From: Escherichia phage Lilleen
Sequence record: MK629526
DNA length: 5,342 nt
Direction: 5' to 3' (one strand)
Below, in pieces: positions 1 through 5,284 of the stretch. Numbering within the stretch: position 1 is the first letter of the stretch; the number at the start of each line of letters is the position of its first letter. The notes below the pieces were generated by a model. The model ran no database searches, had not been told where the DNA came from, and saw nothing but the letters and a program-made list of their open reading frames with translations. The position numbers and the translations under genes were made by a program.

Positions 1-1635
1 ATGTCTGTAGAACTCATCAAACCGCTCGTCGAAGCCGCTGGCATGTCGACACTTACTCAATCTCCAAACCTCCGTATCTGGAAACAGGTAAACACTCGCG
101 TAAAATTACTCGAAGAAATCCTTGCTCACTGGACAAACGGAATCCGTCGCTGCCCTGAAACCCAAGACTTCTACATGAACCCAAATTCTCAACTGGCTAC
201 TACTATTGCCTATCGTGCTCATCAAAAAGGACATAACCCAAAACTCATTCAATACCCTGACACATTTACTCTCGACGACATTATTCGCCGTAAACCAATC
301 CCTCAAACTGCCCCTGACGAACTACGCCTCTCTGATGAAATCGGTGAGGATTACCGCCTTACAGTCATCGCCATTGCTGACGAACTGCAAGAATGTTACG
401 ACGTGCTCGGACAACTTGATATTAATAACACTATAGACCACACCCCTAAAGGTAACGCCCACTGGAGTATGCTTTATGATAAACCTGTTAACACCCATTG
501 GTCACAGCTCGTATCTAAACGACCCCTTAAAGATATCCGCGCCGATTACAACTATGCAAAGGCGAAGGGTATTAAGGATGAATGCTCAAAAATGCTTGAG
601 GAATCCACCATGAAATCACGCCGTGGCTTTACCGTTCAACGATTGATGAATGCTATGCGCCAAGCCCACACTGACGGCTGGTATGTTGTATTCGACACTC
701 TTACTCTTGCCGATGACCGCATACAGGCTTTCTATGATAATCCCAATGCTCTTCGTGACTACTTCCGTGATATTGGTCGTATGGTGCTTGCTGCCGAGGG
801 TCGCTCTGCTAATGACTCACACGCCGACTGCTATCAGTATTTTTGTGTTCCAGAGTATGGCACACAGCACGGTCGTCTACATTTCCACGCAGTGCACCTT
901 ATGCGCACACTTCCTCTGGGTTCTCGTGACCCTAACTTCGGTAAGCTGGTACGCACTAATCGCCAAATAAACTCCTTGCAAAACACATGGCCCTATGGCT
1001 ATTCTATGCCCATCGCAGTCCGGTACTCCCAAGACGCATTCTCGCGCGCTGGCTGGCTCTGGCCTGTTGACTCAAAGGGTGAACCCCTTAAAGCTACCTC
1101 GTATATGGCTGTCGGCTTCTACGTCGCTAAATACGTTAATAAAAAATCTGATATTGATATGGCCGCAAAAGGCCTAGGGAATAAAGAATGGAACGCATCA
1201 CTCAAGACCAAAATATCTCTCCTACCAACAAAACTATTCAGAATCCGGATGTCCCGCAACTTCGGGATGAAGATGTTATCAATGGCGCACCTGACCGCCG
1301 AAACATTAATCCAACTGACCCAGCTGGGCTACGACTCGACCCCGTTCAACAACGTCTTGAAGCAGAACGCCAAGAAAGAGCTGAAATCGAGACTGGCAAA
1401 AGCATCTGTCGCGACCGTTTTGGCGGCGCAACCTGTAACGACCAATCTGCTAAAATTTATGCGCGATTTGACCCGAACAATCGGAGCGTCCAACCTGCAG
1501 AATTTTATCGCTTCAATGACTCAGAAATTAACACTCATGGATACTTCTGATGAGACCAAAAACTACCTTGCTGCTGCAGGAATTACTACTGCTTGCTTAC
1601 GAATTAAATCGAAGTGGACTGCTGGCGGAAAATGA
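1..1635 (+). CDS. A: Replication initiation protein A (rolling-circle HUH endonuclease)
   Basis: 544-aa ORF that I recognise as phiX174/G4 protein A: HUH-type motif 'GRLHFHAVH', twin catalytic tyrosines '[10 protein letters not shown]', conserved C-terminus '[14 protein letters not shown]'. If the window is circular, GGAGG at 5331-5335 sits 7 nt upstream of the ATG at 1 and an in-frame TAA at 5325-5327 closes the frame upstream. Stop TGA 1633-1635 overlaps the C start (ATGA). Confidence 0.9.
412..441 (+). other. Viral (+) strand origin of rolling-circle replication (A-protein nick site)
   Basis: Exact match to the conserved microvirus 30-nt origin CAACTTGATATTAATAACACTATAGACCAC as I recall it. 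The nick would fall between G418 and A419. It lies inside the gene A coding sequence, as in phiX174. Confidence 0.85.
610..1635 (+). CDS. A*: A* protein (in-frame internal initiation within gene A)
   Basis: In-frame ATG at 610 ('MKSRRGF...') preceded by GAGGA at 598-602 (7-nt spacing). Gives a 341-aa product, the same length as phiX174 A* as I recall it. Confidence 0.6.
977..1005 (+). promoter_or_regulatory. Candidate sigma70 promoter upstream of B (PB-like)
   Basis: TTGCAA (977-982), 17-nt spacer, TATTCT (1000-1005), inside gene A about 180 nt upstream of B. Weak match; position is analogous to phiX174 PB. Confidence 0.25.
1188..1550 (+). CDS. B: Internal scaffolding protein B
   Basis: 120-aa ORF nested in gene A in another frame. 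Conserved motifs 'PQLRDE', 'RFGGATC', and C-terminus 'QPAEFYRF...GYF' match phiX174 B (also 120 aa). AGGGA at 1175-1179 upstream of ATG 1188. Stop TGA 1548-1550 overlaps the K start. Confidence 0.9.
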
Positions 1636-1714: not shown

Positions 1715-1892
1715 GGCCGATGCCCTCGACGAGGAAAAATGGCTTAACATGATGGGCGCTCTTCTTAAGGACTGGTTCCGCTACGAAGAACATTTCGTAC
1801 ATGGCAAACAATCTTTAGTTGACATATTAATCGAACGGGGGTTACTATCCCCCACACAAACAACCCGTAACAACAAAGGAAATACCAAATGA
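1632..1892 (+). CDS. C: Protein C (DNA maturation / stage II to III switch)
   Basis: ATG 1632-1634 overlaps the A stop (ATGA). 86 aa '[28 protein letters not shown]...', matching phiX174 C (86 aa). Stop TGA 1890-1892 overlaps the D start. Confidence 0.9.
1819..1848 (+). promoter_or_regulatory. Candidate sigma70 promoter PD (drives D-E-J-F-G-H)
   Basis: Perfect -35 TTGACA (1819-1824), 18-nt spacer, -10 TACTAT (1843-1848), inside the 3' end of C. Same hexamers and location as the phiX174 PD promoter as I recall it. Confidence 0.55.
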
Positions 1893-2344
1893 ACTCCAAT
1901 GAATCGGCTGTAGCCTTTCAAACTGCAATCGCCTCTATCAAAATGATTCAGGCCTCATCTGTCCTCGACCTTACCGAAGACGACTTCGAATTCTTAACTG
2001 GTGACCGTGTCTGGATTGCTACCGACCGTTCTCGCGCTCGCCGTGCTGTGGAGGCCTGCGTTTATGGCACACTGGACTTTGTCGGGTATCCTCGCTTTCC
2101 TGCTCCTGTTGAGTTTATTTCTGCTGTTATCGCTTACTACGTTCATCCGGTCAACATCCAGACCGCTTGTCTCATCATGGAAGGAGCCGAGTTTACTGAA
2201 AACATCGTCAATGGCGTTGAATCCCCAGTTAAGGCTTCCGAGCTCTTCGCTTTCGTTCTCCGTGTCCGCGCTGGCTGTAAAGACGTCCTCGAAGGCGCCG
2301 AAGACAACATCCGCGCTAAACTCCGTGCCCAAGGAATCATGTAA
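1889..2344 (+). CDS. D: External scaffolding protein D
   Basis: 151-aa ORF with very strong similarity to phiX174 D ('VYGTLDFVGYPRFPAPVEFI', 'AYYVHPVNIQTACLIMEGAEFTEN'). AAGGA at 1876-1880 upstream. ATG 1889 overlaps the C stop (ATGA). Confidence 0.93.
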   Translation: MNSNESAVAFQTAIASIKMIQASSVLDLTEDDFEFLTGDRVWIATDRSRARRAVEACVYGTLDFVGYPRFPAPVEFISAVIAYYVHPVNIQTACLIMEGAEFTENIVNGVESPVKASELFAFVLRVRAGCKDVLEGAEDNIRAKLRAQGIM

Positions 2345-2357
2345 ATATTATGGCTAA
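2064..2357 (+). CDS. E: Lysis protein E (MraY inhibitor), +1 frame inside D
   Basis: ATG 2064 preceded by GGAGG at 2050-2054. 97 aa starting 'MAHWTLSGILAFLLLLSLFLLLSLTTFIRSTSRPLVSSWK', an N-terminal transmembrane helix resembling phiX174 E ('MVRWTLWDTLAFLLLLSLLLPSLLIMFIPSTFKRPVSSWK'). The ORF track's earlier start at 2001 is a GTG. Confidence 0.75.
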   Translation: MAHWTLSGILAFLLLLSLFLLLSLTTFIRSTSRPLVSSWKEPSLLKTSSMALNPQLRLPSSSLSFSVSALAVKTSSKAPKTTSALNSVPKESCKYYG

Positions 2358-2436
2358 AGGCAAATCATATCGCCGCGGTTCCGCTGGCAATAAAAAAGGC
2401 TCCCGCCTCTGGTACGTTGGCGGCTCTCAATTCTAA
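2350..2436 (+). CDS. J: Small basic DNA-binding/packaging protein J
   Basis: Hand translation gives 28 aa 'MAKGKSYRRGSAGNKKGSRLWYVGGSQF'. Basic, with the conserved C-terminal 'RLWYVGG.QF' of phiX174/G4 J. Below the ORF-track length cutoff. Confidence 0.8.
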   Translation: MAKGKSYRRGSAGNKKGSRLWYVGGSQF

Positions 2437-2480: not shown

Positions 2481-3806
2481 ATGTCTAATGTTCAAACTTC
2501 TGCCTCTCGTGATGCAATTGATTTATCACATCTGGTCTTCAACACTGGCGCTATTGGTCGCCTTAAAGTCGCATCATGGACCCCTGTTATCGCTGGTGAT
2601 TCTTTCCAGCTTGACGCTGTTGGTGCTTTACGCTTATCCCCTCTGCGTCGCGGCTTGGCTATTGACTCAACTGTTGATTACTTCACTTTCTATATTCCAC
2701 ACCGTCATATCTATGGCGATGCATGGATTCAATTTATGAAAACTGGCGTCGCTGCCACTTCTCTTAACCCTGTAACCACTGGCGAATACGTTGATAGCGC
2801 CTCTTATCTTGGTGTAATCCCTTCCAAAGATGGCAAGGTTCCTAAGTTCCTGCATCAAGGCTATCTCAATATTTATAATAACTACTTCAAAGCTCCTTGG
2901 ATGGCTGACCGTACTGAGGCAAACCCATCTAACTTAAACGACGACGACCGTCGTCATGGCTTCCGCTGCTGCCATCTAAAAAACATATGGTCTGCACCTC
3001 TTCCTCCTCAAACGGAAATCACTCGCGCTATGGATACTGGCGCTACTTCCATTGATATCATGGGTCTTCAAGCTGCCTACGCCCAACTTCACACTGACCA
3101 AGAACGTGACTACTTCATGCAACGTTACCGTGACGTAATCTCTTCGTTCGGTGGCAAAACTCACTATGACGCTGACAACCGTCCTCTTCTGCTTATGCGC
3201 TCTAACTTCTGGGCTTCTGGCTATGACATTGACGGTACTGATCAAACCTCATTAGGTCAATTCTCTGGTCGTGTCCAACAAACATTCCGCCACTCTGTTC
3301 CTCGCTTCTTCGTACCGGAACACGGCGTTATTATGACTCTTCAACTCGTACGCTTCCCGCCTACCTGCACTGAGGAAACTCACTACCTCGTCGGCAAAGG
3401 CGCACTAAGCTATACTGACCTTGCGGGCGACCCTACTCTTTACGGTAACTTACCGCCTCGCGAAATCGAAATGAAAACTCTCTTCCGTGGCGCTGCTGGC
3501 TCTTCTGAAAAAATCAAAATTGCCGAAGGGCAATGGTATCGCTATCATCCTTCTTACGTTGATGGTCAATATCACAACCTTCAAGGGTTCCCGTTCATCC
3601 CAAATGGTCCAACTGGCAACATGGAAAACCGTGTACTGATTGACCATAAAAAATATGACGAATGCTTCCAGTCACTTCAATTAACTCACTGGAATGCCCA
3701 GGCTAAATACAATGTCACTGTATATCGACACATCCCAACTACTCGTGATAGTTACTACTACTATCACAAAGGCCGTCACTCCCGCCGCGTTGGCTCCTAT
3801 TATTAA
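2481..3806 (+). CDS. F: Major capsid protein F (C-terminal 17 aa are out-of-frame read-through into G sequence)
   Basis: 441-aa ORF, AAGGA at 2470-2474 (6-nt spacing). Strong similarity to phiX174 F along the whole length up to '...[14 protein letters not shown]' (codon about 424). After that the reading is '[17 protein letters not shown]' instead of the expected short '...IMTS*'. Those last codons overlap nucleotides that encode G in the +1 frame. Confidence 0.9.
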   Translation: MSNVQTSASRDAIDLSHLVFNTGAIGRLKVASWTPVIAGDSFQLDAVGALRLSPLRRGLAIDSTVDYFTFYIPHRHIYGDAWIQFMKTGVAATSLNPVTTGEYVDSASYLGVIPSKDGKVPKFLHQGYLNIYNNYFKAPWMADRTEANPSNLNDDDRRHGFRCCHLKNIWSAPLPPQTEITRAMDTGATSIDIMGLQAAYAQLHTDQERDYFMQRYRDVISSFGGKTHYDADNRPLLLMRSNFWASGYDIDGTDQTSLGQFSGRVQQTFRHSVPRFFVPEHGVIMTLQLVRFPPTCTEETHYLVGKGALSYTDLAGDPTLYGNLPPREIEMKTLFRGAAGSSEKIKIAEGQWYRYHPSYVDGQYHNLQGFPFIPNGPTGNMENRVLIDHKKYDECFQSLQLTHWNAQAKYNVTVYRHIPTTRDSYYYYHKGRHSRRVGSYY

Positions 3807-4236
3807 TACGCCAACCGTTGCGCGTAACAATCTCTTTGTGAACTTAACTACTACCGCCCTAACTTCTCCGGGCGGTATCTCTGCTGTTGTCGCTATCGAC
3901 AACTCTTCTCATACCGACAATCAGGTTATCTCTATTGCTGCCTCTCTTTCTACTGCTGGCAGTCTAGTACCTGTTCTTTGTCGGTTTGAATCTGCTACTG
4001 TACCAACGGCTATCCCCGCATCTGCGGTTACTTACTATCCGTTGGAATTTAAATTATCTGCTACTGCTCTATCCGTCAAGGACTGCGCTACTGTCTCTAC
4101 TATTTCTCGCTCTGGCAATCCTGTTTATGTAGGTATTGCCCTTATTGCGAAATCATTTATCGCCGATACTGTATACGGCTCTATCTCAATTAATCAGGTT
4201 GACCAAGAAATCACAACTCTGCAACCCCTCAAATAA
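3694..4236 (+). CDS. G: Major spike protein G (canonical N-terminus, RBS and start absent; true start uncertain)
   Basis: G-like sequence runs from about 3766 ('[16 protein letters not shown]...[13 protein letters not shown]...VKDCATV...NPVYVGI...LQPLK*'), matching G4/phiX174 G from roughly residue 15-20 to the C-terminus. Upstream, the frame stays open inside F to ATG 3694 (and ATG 3712) with no convincing Shine-Dalgarno. The expected 'MFQ.FIS.HN' N-terminus is absent. Confidence 0.7.
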
Positions 4237-4246
4237 AGGAATCTCT

Positions 4247-5284
4247 ATGTTTGGTGCAATCGCTGGCGGCATCGCCTCTACTCTTGCTGGCGGTCTAATG
4301 TCCAAACTGATGGGCGGCAATAAACAAGCCGCCCCTTCAACTCCCGGACAAGGCCTCTTCGCTACCCCTGAAGCTACTATCTCTGCTGATAATGCAGGTA
4401 TTCAATCTGTTATGCAGGGACCTAACCCGCCTAGACCTGATCAGGCGGCTCCTACATTTACTGAATCTGCCGTCTCCTCACTTAAGGATGCTGGCAAAGG
4501 ACTTCTCGATGGTACTCTACAAGCTGGCGGCTCTGCTGTTCAACAAGCTCTTCTTAATAAAATTGGCCTCGGTGGCAAATCTGCTGCTGATAAAGGCAAG
4601 GATACTAAAGATTACCTTGCTTCTGCGTTCCCCGAGCTCAACCCGTGGGAACGCGCTGGCGCTGGTGCTTCCTCTGCTGGTATGGTTGACGCTGGCTTTG
4701 AAAACCAAAAACAACTAACCAAGATGCAACTTGACAACCAAGTCAAAATCGCTAAGATGCAAAACGACACTCAAAAGGATATCGCTGGTATCCAGTCTGC
4801 CACATCACGCATGAACACTAAGGACTCTGTATATGCTCAAAACGAAATGCTCCAATACAACCAAAAGGAATCTATGTCACGTGTTGGCGCTATTCTCGAA
4901 AACACAAGCCTCACCAAACAACAACAAACTTCTGAAATTATGCGCCAAATGCTTACTCAGGCTCAAACCTCAGGACAACACTTTACTAACGCTCAAATCC
5001 AAGAACTTACTCGAAAAGTCGGTGCTGATATTGATGCTGTTCGTGCTAACACTCAACGCACCAATGTAGAAACTGACCGCTCTAAACAGGAAGTCCAAAA
5101 CTCACGTTACGCATCATCACAGGTCGGTAAAACCGCCAAGGACGTATCAAATGTCATTAGTGACGCATCTTCTGGTATTGTTGATTATTTTCGTGGCGTT
5201 GATAAAGCTGTGGCTGACACTTGGAACAATTATTGGAAAGATGGTAAAGCCGACGGAGTAGGCTCCAACATGTCTCGCAAATAG
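4247..5284 (+). CDS. H: Minor spike / DNA pilot protein H
   Basis: ATG 4247 preceded by AGGA at 4237-4240. 345 aa '[11 protein letters not shown]...[22 protein letters not shown]...[26 protein letters not shown]', collinear with phiX174 H. The ORF-track start at 4136 is a TTG in the G 3' end and is not used. Confidence 0.9.

Follow-up and report, generated by a model that had tools for sequence, protein, structure and literature searches.

The boundary between the major coat protein gene F and the spike protein gene G is collapsed in the publicly available genome of Escherichia phage Lilleen (MK629526; this whole record of 5342 nt, with a GC content of 46.9%, is the window analyzed here), with 155 nt that are common to all of its close relatives being absent between positions 3751 and 3752, and we infer that this is probably a hole in the deposited sequence, left by an incomplete contig that was closed as a circle, rather than a feature of the living phage. 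Lilleen is a Lilleput-type gequatrovirus (Bullavirinae) that shows 97.6% identity to Lilleput at 100% coverage and is colinear with it except for three indels, and its ORFs and the Pfam matches for F, G and J agree with such an assignment. The Lilleput-type gequatroviruses (Lilleput MK629525, Lilledu, Lilleto, lillemer, MG1 and SECphi17), along with Logan contigs, are 93–98% identical to Lilleen at the genome-wide nucleotide level (~90% for two ENA contigs), and these gequatroviruses share with it the gene order A/B/K-C-D/E-J-F-G-H, the A or D proteins even being identical in some of them.

The gap was seen in an alignment with six GenBank relatives, as well as in a whole-genome alignment with Lilleput, as a single clean one, having …CGTGATAG up to 3751 as its left flank and TTACTACT… from 3752 as its right flank (Table 1). 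The missing segment corresponds to nt 3746–3900 of Lilleput and comprises 16 nt of F (the final base of the Ser424 codon, the IMTS codons and the TAA), the entire 99-nt F-G spacer and 40 nt of G (the ATG, then 12 codons, then one base of codon 14). The first and last bases of the absent segment are C and T, and the window reads …G/T… across the junction, so that the gap can be placed in only one way, and the microhomology at the junction amounts to 0 nt. The circular length is 5483–5490 nt in the ten full relatives versus the 5342 nt of Lilleen. The initial annotation had suspected a deletion or misjoin hitting two essential structural genes, expected to appear as a clean alignment gap of 150–230 nt and to leave F with a 17-aa out-of-frame tail ending at 3806, all the remaining intergenic regions being intact; the comparisons with the six relatives, Lilleput and the 10 relatives bear out the disruption of both genes, the actual gap against the six relatives and Lilleput lies within the range proposed, translation yields precisely such a tail, and the only other indels in the Lilleput alignment are +6 nt at 2345–2350, which keeps the E ORF in frame, and +1 nt near 4237. 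Both of these remaining private indels of Lilleen are found at gene junctions and are biologically sensible in appearance.

Table 1. Features of the Lilleen window at and around the collapsed F-G boundary.
Feature	Coordinates	Strand	Description
F (major coat protein) ORF	2481..3806	+	441 aa; colinear with the 428-aa F of relatives to residue 424 (…TTRDS), out of frame after
Non-native G N-terminal stretch	3694..3751	+	Begins M(PRLNTM); +1 frame of F codons; stands in for MFQNFVTKHNSPQ
G-frame ORF	3694..4236	+	180 aa from ATG 3694 (GenBank annotation) or 174 aa from ATG 3712
Junction	3751..3752	.	Blunt join; 155 nt absent (six-relative alignment, whole-genome alignment, flanks of 10 relatives)
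Native G part	3752..4236	+	Codon 14 (position 2) to stop; intact, colinear with relatives
Aberrant F tail	3753..3806	+	17 codons and stop (3804-3806); G codons in the wrong frame, in place of IMTS
tactactactat tract	3753..3764	+	Ordinary G codons 15-18 (T-T-T-I), in all relatives
H (minor spike/pilot protein)	4247..5284	+	Intact, colinear with Lilleput H; downstream limit of the affected region

The part lost from F is under strong constraint. The C-terminus of this protein, …RDSIMTS, is near-invariant judging by the sequences compared: the R[DE][SGA][IV][ML]T… terminus was present in 44 of the 46 full-length F homologues, RDSIMTS itself in all ten of the other members of the F cluster (90% cluster), and an F of the group would be expected to be 427–431 aa long and to end in R-D-S-I-M-T-S, which the Lilleen product (identical to QCG76763.1) does not. 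Pfam Phage_F matches it only as far as residue 424 (profile position 499 of 501), versus residue 426 (501 of 501) for Lilleput, and the full-length matches each span just 96% of the Lilleen query, the tail being covered by no F homologue (120 matches listed of 392 in both cases).

The start of G is constrained as well. All 14 other listed members of the G cluster (90% cluster) start with MFQNFVTKHNS, a G of the group would be expected to be ~174 aa long with a start of the M-F-Q-x-[FY]-x-[ST]-[KR]-H type, and the N-terminal motif (MFQxF…HN) is kept across five clades at 32–47% identity, whereas the Lilleen G (identical to QCG76764.1 when counted as 180 aa) has no such start and is matched by Pfam Phage_G from profile position 19 only (86.5 bits, as opposed to positions 1–175 and 100.8 bits for the Lilleput G). 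Cryo-EM structures, including that of PJNS002 (83.5% nucleotide identity to the Lilleen window), have Met1, Phe2, Gln3, Phe5, Ser7 and Asn10 of G engaged in conserved G-G and G-F hydrogen bonds, and Lilleen G is without all six. In the relatives, the same +1 frame of F is open as well, but meets a stop after 15 codons (MSLYIDISRLHVIAS and the stop). That the sequence resumes within G, and that G has no native start, had been noticed initially, and both hold in essence (the native part begins at 3752); the resumption point is residue 14–15 of G at the 3751/3752 junction, however, and not residue 15–20 as had been proposed, and there are in-frame ATGs upstream, at 3712 and 3694, neither of them with a proper ribosome-binding site. 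The pairing with the 3′ end of 16S rRNA upstream of ATG 3712 is −3.3 kcal/mol (40th percentile of all the ATGs in the window) and that upstream of ATG 3694 is +2.0, while the real gene starts of this genome reach −5.4 to −5.9, so that neither substitute start has a usable Shine-Dalgarno sequence. An internal start at TTG 3790 was rejected upon inspection of the sequence, its AAGG lying 16 nt upstream, which is too distant. The suggestion that the tactactactat tract might be microhomology at the junction had to be abandoned: these are native G codons in all relatives, no copy of the tract abuts the left breakpoint and the flanks share 0 nt (TTTACTACTACTATCAC is found in nine of the ten full relatives, and TTTACTACTAATATCAC in Lilleput).

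As to the spacer, 10/10 full-length relatives have an F of 428 aa, a spacer of 99 nt and a G of 174 aa; among the Lilleput-type relatives, in which F ends with RDSIMTS and G begins with MFQNF (Lilleen has neither), the spacer is 101 nt long in Lilleto and 99 nt in the others, whereas Lilleen has none. The nucleotide diversity (pi) of the spacer among the 10 relatives is 0.016 (5/99 sites variable), compared to 0.13 for the third codon positions of F and ~0.08 for the other two spacers, and by this measure the F-G spacer outranks every other non-coding element of the clade in conservation. It folds, as DNA, into a strong hairpin (−20.6 kcal/mol, z = −4.3), has, like that of phiX174, a pair of one long and one short hairpin, and aligns with the phiX174 F-G spacer over the blocks TATAACG, the AAAAATTTTAATTTTT loop region and GGTTGA.CAAGCG.AAGCGCG.TAG. 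Among the k-mers of the intact spacer are GACAGGGGGAAAAATTTTAATTTTTCGCCCCCTGTC and ATGTTTCAGAACTTTGT. The phiX174 F-G spacer holds the T_F hairpin, which overlaps the ori(-)/PriA (primosome) site, a second functional hairpin and the ribosome-binding site of G (PMC3606162; bioRxiv 10.1101/2020.03.05.979765; bioRxiv 10.64898/2026.07.25.740675), and homology to it, together with the conservation seen, suggests that the spacer would serve comparable functions in the Lilleput group. A simple terminator scan revealed no canonical terminator (stem and T-run) in the Lilleput spacer, and the T_F assignment thus comes from the phiX174 homology alone. Each of the ten full relatives has this ~99-nt spacer, complete with a hairpin pair resembling that of phiX174 and an AAGGA that serves G as ribosome-binding site; the Lilleen window has no part of it.

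Apart from this boundary, the Lilleen genome, judged by its substitutions, appears to be correct and to come from a lineage that functions: of its 29 private substitutions, ~22 are synonymous, only four events are amino-acid-changing, and none fall within ~70 nt of the junction. Nor was a natural relative sharing such an F/G overlap, which would have spoken against a damaged boundary, encountered among 10 full genomes, 569 Bullavirinae records, the listed members of the 90% clusters (15 for G and 11 for F) or the 120 listed of 392 F homologues, and the only proteins having a Lilleen-type F end or G start were Lilleen's own GenBank pair. Exact-protein look-ups of F, G (from both starts) and H retrieved no independent contig of Lilleen. 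The exact junction patterns were also absent from IMG/VR and the JGI metagenomes, but so was the intact boundary of the relatives, meaning that there are no Lilleput-type phages there and that this particular negative is uninformative.

How such a sequence might have come about is best considered along with its provenance. The study in question sequenced lysates of enrichment wells, not purified plaques, using Nextera XT and de novo assembly by CLC/SPAdes; Lilleen, from sample 33A (Sommersted), was represented by 1058 reads (26x), the fewest of the six microviruses, compared to assembly coverages of 254x for Lilleput and 701x for Lilleven, and the start points of the study's genomes were set to common ones (PMC7552041). 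The Lilleen window and the Lilleput, Lilledu and Lilleto records do begin at or near the gpA ATG; the ends of the lillemer record lie inside F. It is this provenance (26x coverage, an unpurified lysate, common start points) that makes a misjoin the likelier of the two branches, deletion or misjoin. The de novo contig assembled from these reads would have failed to close over the hairpin-rich F-G spacer, with one contig end within the 3′-terminal portion of F and the other within the 5′-terminal portion of G; taken as a complete circle, it would have had these ends abutted and its start moved to the gpA ATG, upon which automatic annotation would have delivered a 441-aa “F” and a 180-aa “G”. In that case the actual phage would resemble its relatives in having an F ending in …RDSIMTS, a spacer of ~99 nt and a G starting with MFQNF….

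A blunt junction with no microhomology is what two abutted contig ends would be expected to leave, and the absence of shared sequence at the junction is accompanied here by a clean neighborhood, low coverage and a changed start point. The strong constraint on all of the lost pieces (the spacer, the F C-terminus and the G N-terminus), the lack of a usable Shine-Dalgarno sequence for the substitute G starts and a boundary that is unique among the sequences compared, within an otherwise healthy genome, likewise count for the assembly hole; nonsense mutations of phiX174 are lethal in 99% of cases. Several points speak against it, nevertheless. Chance would not open a 155-nt hole even at 26x, and coverage has to be taken as strongly biased at this spot or the strains as heterogeneous; contig ends are not brought together by assemblers unaided, and a manual or scripted circularization has to be supposed, whereas the paper states only the change of start point; and the two other private indels at gene junctions indicate that the Lilleen lineage does have unusual junctions. 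Furthermore, the ORF from ATG 3712 has exactly the native G length of 174 aa, an outcome given by only 2.7% of simulated deletions with their ends in the two stretches concerned (23% came within ±6 aa, and 61% left some in-frame ATG); such a coincidence would be easier to understand if the deletion were viable and had been selected.

A real 155-nt illegitimate deletion yielding a defective genome is unlikely, even though several observations would sit well with it. Such a deletion would have arisen in replicative forms or in a subpopulation during the two high-titer enrichment rounds, and the defective molecules would have been either propagated with the aid of intact helpers or merely chosen as the assembly path, having on their own no functional F or G and no complementary-strand priming. 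Intracellular double-stranded forms in the crude lysate were probably the source of the library, so that non-packaged or non-viable molecules could have been sampled, the losses do look lethal, and the purifying selection seen elsewhere in the genome implies that any deletion must be very recent; yet losing the counterpart of the phiX174 PriA site/ori(-) gives no obvious replication advantage over a helper, and a helper present at a comparable level should have put spacer reads into the assembly. In ssDNA phages, the end points of spontaneous deletions usually fall in short direct repeats, and there are none at the ends of the Lilleen gap. Among the particular routes to a deletion that were tried and rejected, slippage between ACT repeats (ACTACT ~7 nt to the left of the junction and at its right) would remove CGTGATAG, which is kept, excision of the hairpin alone would leave a gap far smaller than that observed, and cleavage by the gene A protein at a pseudo-origin was discarded by reasoning, since, despite the presence of TGATA, the break lies elsewhere than at G/A.

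It is more doubtful still that the deletion is real and Lilleen a viable natural bullavirus, one that lost its F-G spacer and gained a new F/G overlap of 95 nt (113 nt if G starts at ATG 3694 instead of ATG 3712), out of frame and with the G start inside F, along with a de novo 14-residue G N-terminus at native length and a 17-residue F tail, which F would have to tolerate while priming and transcription attenuation proceed without the F-G spacer. Plaques were obtained from the well, of which Lilleen was the sole microvirus assembled, the exact native length of the ORF from ATG 3712 would be accounted for, out-of-frame overlaps are already in use among phiX174-type phages, an F one residue longer at its C-terminus is tolerated in phiX174, and spacer deletion has been viable in the lab-evolved phiX174 CMMloC (27 nt, J-F). 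On the other hand, G, of which each virion needs 60 copies, would have to be made without a Shine-Dalgarno sequence, none of the conserved N-terminal G residues that form inter-subunit and G-F bonds is kept, F has lost its invariant C-terminus, the clade's most conserved non-coding element, whose phiX174 counterpart is the PriA site/ori(-), is missing too, and the arrangement has no match among the genomes, cluster members and Bullavirinae records compared. The +1 frame and ATG 3712 also exist already in the relatives examined, and this, with not a single private substitution close to the junction, leaves no sign of adaptation. Least probable is an artefact at the level of the library or reads, for example polymerase jumping or chimeras arising as the Nextera PCR crossed the structured spacer, with the deleted fragments then followed by the assembler, for while the hairpin in the missing region is very stable and a few chimeric fragments could dominate locally at low coverage, template jumping normally takes place at repeats or at the hairpin base, the gap exceeds the long hairpin by ~26 nt upstream and ~90 nt downstream, and its ends are without homology.

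If the boundary is indeed an artefact of assembly closure, the value of recognizing it is curatorial: a “complete genome”, MK629526, would be carrying a 155-nt hole, the 17-aa tail of QCG76763.1 and the N-terminus of QCG76764.1 would be false, and both of these proteins, being present in protein clusters, could mislead alignments, start-site models and Bullavirinae genome-size statistics. The sequence taken literally would describe a coat with a foreign 17-aa tail and a spike without the N-terminal arm that bonds neighboring G subunits and F, with no Shine-Dalgarno sequence for G and no counterpart of the phiX174 complementary-strand origin. Were it both real and viable, which the evidence makes unlikely, it would represent the recent one-step birth of an overprinted overlap and complementary-strand priming without a canonical site; a microvirus could then do without the counterpart of a PriA-type origin and without the conserved N-terminal arm of G, and questions on overprinting and on ssDNA priming would become directly testable.

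Among the systems that invite comparison, three entries of public protein sets (P0052, P0061 and P0111, one of them labelled Penicillium manginii) have F running into G as F-G “fusion proteins”, but their joins are in frame, unlike the Lilleen junction and unrelated to it, and these entries appear to be phiX174 spike-in contamination that went through eukaryote-style gene prediction, internal segments having been skipped like introns. Closer in kind is phiX174 CMMloC (AF299314, 5356 nt), which is, like Lilleen, a bullavirus genome shortened by the loss of an intergenic hairpin; its deletion of 27 nt, however, lies within the J-F spacer and keeps the ORFs and start sites, as would befit a viable spacer deletion confined to non-coding sequence, whereas the 155 nt of Lilleen include the coding ends of both genes. 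The overlaps of phiX174-type phages (B in A, E in D, K across A/C) are out of frame, and so is that of Lilleen F and G as written, which differs from a genuinely overprinted pair in that none of the related genomes compared has the overlap, there is no Shine-Dalgarno sequence and the conserved residues of both proteins are lost. The E-in-D and D/J overlaps are common to Lilleen and Lilleput, the TAATG of D/J being present in eight relatives as well, while the F/G overlap is confined to MK629526.

The deposited Lilleen sequence (5342 nt, GC 46.9%, position 1 being the ATG of gene A) represents a phiX174/G4-type microvirus (Bullavirinae), submitted as a complete genome. Megablast returned six close relatives at 93–98% identity (Escherichia phages Lilleput, Lilledu, lillemer, Lilleto, MG1 and SECphi17, with deposited lengths of 5484–5538 nt), exact-protein look-ups brought in further members of the group as ENA and Logan contigs, and the trimming of assembly overlaps left ten full relatives with circular lengths of 5483–5490 nt.

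Genes of the deposited Lilleen genome (MK629526)
Feature	Position	Strand	Length	Basis and remarks
A	1-1635	+		ORF list; B and K inside or across A
C	after A			ORF list
D	1889-2344			ORF list; E frame inside D
J	2350-2436			ORF list
F as it stands	2481-3806		441 aa	identical to QCG76763.1, annotated major coat protein of Lilleen
G-frame ORF	3694-4236		180 aa	identical to QCG76764.1, annotated major spike protein of Lilleen
H	4247-5284			ORF list

Both the alignment with the six GenBank relatives and the whole-genome alignment with Lilleput (MK629525) contain a single clean 155-nt gap after window position 3751 (…CGTGATAG) and before 3752 (TTACTACT…), the counterpart of which is Lilleput nt 3746–3900. 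It encompasses 16 nt of the coat gene F (third base of the Ser424 codon, the I-M-T-S codons and TAA), the entire 99-nt F-G spacer and 40 nt of the spike gene G (ATG, twelve further codons and one base), which bears out the claim of the initial annotation that the F stop, the spacer and the native G start are missing. Translation likewise agrees with its reading of F through …TTRDS into a tail of 17 out-of-frame residues (stop at 3804–3806), and G-coding sequence does resume partway in, albeit at residues 14–15 rather than at 15–20, the native sequence being back from codon 14 on. Every other intergenic region is intact, as had been stated; the only further indels versus Lilleput are 6 extra nt where D meets J and 1 extra nt between G and H. 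With C as the first and T as the last base of the missing segment, against G and T in the retained flanks, the junction placement is unambiguous, blunt and without microhomology. The ‘tactactactat’ tract, previously suspected of being microhomology, was rejected as a junction feature: it consists of native G codons 15–18 (T-T-T-I) common to all relatives, and the flanks share none.

What is lost is under strong constraint elsewhere. The F C-terminus reads R-[DE]-[SGA]-[IV]-[ML]-T-… in 44 of 46 full-length homologues (52–99% identity), and its last five codons show no nucleotide variation inside the clade; nonsense mutations in phiX174 are lethal in 99% of cases, and stop-loss mutations of F are tolerated, which the authors credit to a second stop codon immediately after. 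Five clades, with G otherwise at 32–47% identity, all keep M-F-Q-x-[FY]-x-[ST]-[KR]-H at the start of the protein, and the Pfam Phage_G profile is matched from position 1 by Lilleput G and from position 19 only by the window G. Cryo-EM structures of two microviruses, one of them PJNS002 (83.5% nucleotide identity to the window), have conserved hydrogen bonds G1Met1-G2Asn10, G1Phe2-G2Phe5, G1Phe2-G2Ser7 and G1Gln3-F4Gln255 (PMC12328618), and the lost G arm therefore joins adjacent G subunits, as well as G to F.

The F-G spacer is the most conserved non-coding stretch in the relatives (pi 0.016, 5 of 99 sites variable; for comparison, 0.13 and 0.07 at F and G third codon positions, and ~0.08 in the J-F and H-A spacers). 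As DNA, it is predicted to form two hairpins, the long one first and the short one after it (−20.6 kcal/mol, z = −4.3), and it can be aligned with the phiX174 F-G spacer, not with that of G4. The phiX174 region holds the T_F terminator hairpin, with which ori(-) and the PriA binding site overlap; it also contains the G ribosome-binding site and a second hairpin in which many mutations are detrimental (PMC3606162; bioRxiv 10.1101/2020.03.05.979765; bioRxiv 10.64898/2026.07.25.740675). Homology and conservation suggest that the Lilleput-group spacer shares these functions; a simple terminator scan called no canonical terminator in it. In Lilleto (MK629529), two inserted nucleotides, GC, in the 5′ arm of the long hairpin (columns 150–151 of the alignment with the six GenBank relatives) pair with a CG that, in the other genomes, bulges out of the 3′ arm (GGGGGCGAAAAA / TTTTTCGCCCCC); the indel lengthens the stem and lends support to the structure. 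The Lilleput group and ID18 are classed as gequatroviruses, yet carry a phiX174-type spacer homologous to the PriA-site hairpin (Lilleput 3762–3860 in the spacer alignment including phiX174 and G4), whereas the G4 spacer is unrelated in sequence; the assumed complementary-strand origin element does not track genus assignment.

A close relative with the same F/G overlap, the case that the initial annotation had named against its own reading, was looked for and not encountered in the genomes, clusters and homologues searched. None of the ten full relatives has this arrangement (428 aa for F, 174 aa for G and 99 nt for the spacer in every case); of the other sequences in the clusters at 90% identity, the 14 distinct G sequences listed all begin with MFQNFVTKHNS… and none shares the window start, while all ten other F sequences end in …RDSIMTS and lack the window tail. 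Of 392 F homologues, 120 were listed, and the full-length matches among these, each covering 96% of the query, also leave that tail uncovered. With Lilleput G as a tblastn query, 569 of 569 Bullavirinae records of the phage collection gave a match over at least 80% of its length, every match among the rows listed beginning at residue 1. The junction was absent from IMG/VR and the JGI metagenomes in pattern scans, but so was the intact boundary of the relatives, and the scans are therefore uninformative either way. Three public proteins in the F homologue list that join F to G (P0052, P0061 and P0111) are phiX174 F-G and D-F-G “fusions” with internal pieces skipped, one being labelled Penicillium manginii, and appear to be phiX174 spike-in contamination via eukaryote-style gene prediction.

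The source of Lilleen was wastewater enriched twice in liquid culture with E. coli MG1655, and lysates of plaque-giving wells, not purified plaques, were sequenced (Nextera XT libraries, NextSeq, de novo assembly with CLC and SPAdes; Olsen et al. 2020, PMC7552041). Lilleen was in sample 33A alongside another phage and, at 26x and 1058 mapped reads, had the fewest reads among the six microviruses (coverage was 254x for Lilleput and 701x for Lilleven); the authors call the sequencing of ssDNA phages by a dsDNA transposase kit “peculiar”, probably having proceeded via replicative-form DNA (PMC7552041). The genomes of the study were set to common starting points: the records of Lilleen, Lilleput, Lilledu and Lilleto start at or near the gpA ATG, whereas the lillemer record has its ends inside F. 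The proposed “deletion or misjoin” was right, with a misjoin being more likely than a deletion: the gap probably represents an incomplete contig closed as a circle. The contig would have failed to close across the structured F-G spacer, and would have been taken for a complete circle with its two ends abutted; the record now begins at gpA. Such a history explains why the junction is blunt and free of homology, why strongly constrained elements are missing from an otherwise healthy genome, why the source formed plaques, and why the arrangement is unique. Its weaknesses are that a hole at even 26x needs strong local bias, and that the closure step is assumed.

That defective molecules with a genuine deletion were picked up from the crude lysate seems unlikely. 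The rest of the genome holds 29 private substitutions versus the ten relatives, with about 22 synonymous events and four changing amino acids (F A116K, G D39N, G S115L and H S63R), and this pattern is typical of a functional lineage whose sequence is accurate; any real deletion must be very recent. F A116K stems from four adjacent private substitutions (2825–2828, CAAA vs TGCT in all ten relatives), which may have arisen together as one multi-nucleotide change or have come in as a short recombined patch from a lineage not yet sampled. Lilleen has three private indels, and each lies at a gene junction. The 6-nt insertion ATATTA (2345–2350) comes between the D stop and the J start (TAAATATTATG vs overlapping TAATG in the eight relatives matched by anchor search), moves the AAGGA Shine-Dalgarno of J from ~8 to ~14 nt from its ATG and, being in frame for the E-type ORF inside D, changes the end of the latter from …CNG to …CKYYG before the stop. 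An extra A right after the G stop (4235–4237, AAATAAAGGAATC vs AAATAAGGAATC or AAATAAGGGATC in eight relatives) extends the G-H spacer from 9 to 10 nt.

That the deletion is real and Lilleen viable, with F and G overlapping by overprinting, is very doubtful. The G frame is open upstream into F, and translation from ATG 3712 gives 174 aa, exactly the native G length (ATG 3694, used in GenBank, gives 180 aa). A simulation covered every one of the 3904 deletions that begin within the final 63 nt of F and finish within the opening 60 nt of G: 61% of them retained an in-frame upstream ATG, 23% yielded a G within ±6 aa of native length and 2.7% the exact length; the match is a mild coincidence and the sole point for a selected, viable deletion. 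Against such a phage stand the lost G contact residues, F C-terminus and counterpart of the phiX174 PriA site/ori(-), as well as a missing ribosome-binding site: by 16S rRNA 3′ end pairing, neither ATG has a real Shine-Dalgarno sequence (−3.3 kcal/mol for ATG 3712, the 40th percentile of window ATGs, and +2.0 for ATG 3694, vs −5.4 to −5.9 at the F, native G, H, D and J starts). The gap fuses G to a +1 frame at the F end that is already open, with its ATG, as a 15-codon ORF in the relatives examined, and there are no private substitutions within ~70 nt of the junction, so there is no sign of adaptation to the new arrangement. Nor does the overlap qualify as an evolved gene pair: the relatives lack it, it comes without a ribosome-binding site, and conserved residues are replaced by it. 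The short ORF itself reads MSLYIDISRLHVIAS before its stop in Lilleput, without a Shine-Dalgarno sequence (window 3712–3756; Lilleput 3706–3753). A PCR or chimera artefact is highly improbable.

The record MK629526, along with those of its F and G proteins, is best regarded as suspect, and the biological interest of the F-G gap as low. By identity and gene order, Lilleen belongs to the Lilleput-type gequatroviruses, yet it departs from them in three boundary features that define the group. Its gap also differs from known viable spacer deletions, such as the 27-nt one in the J-F spacer of phiX174 isolate CMMloC, which leaves all ORFs intact.
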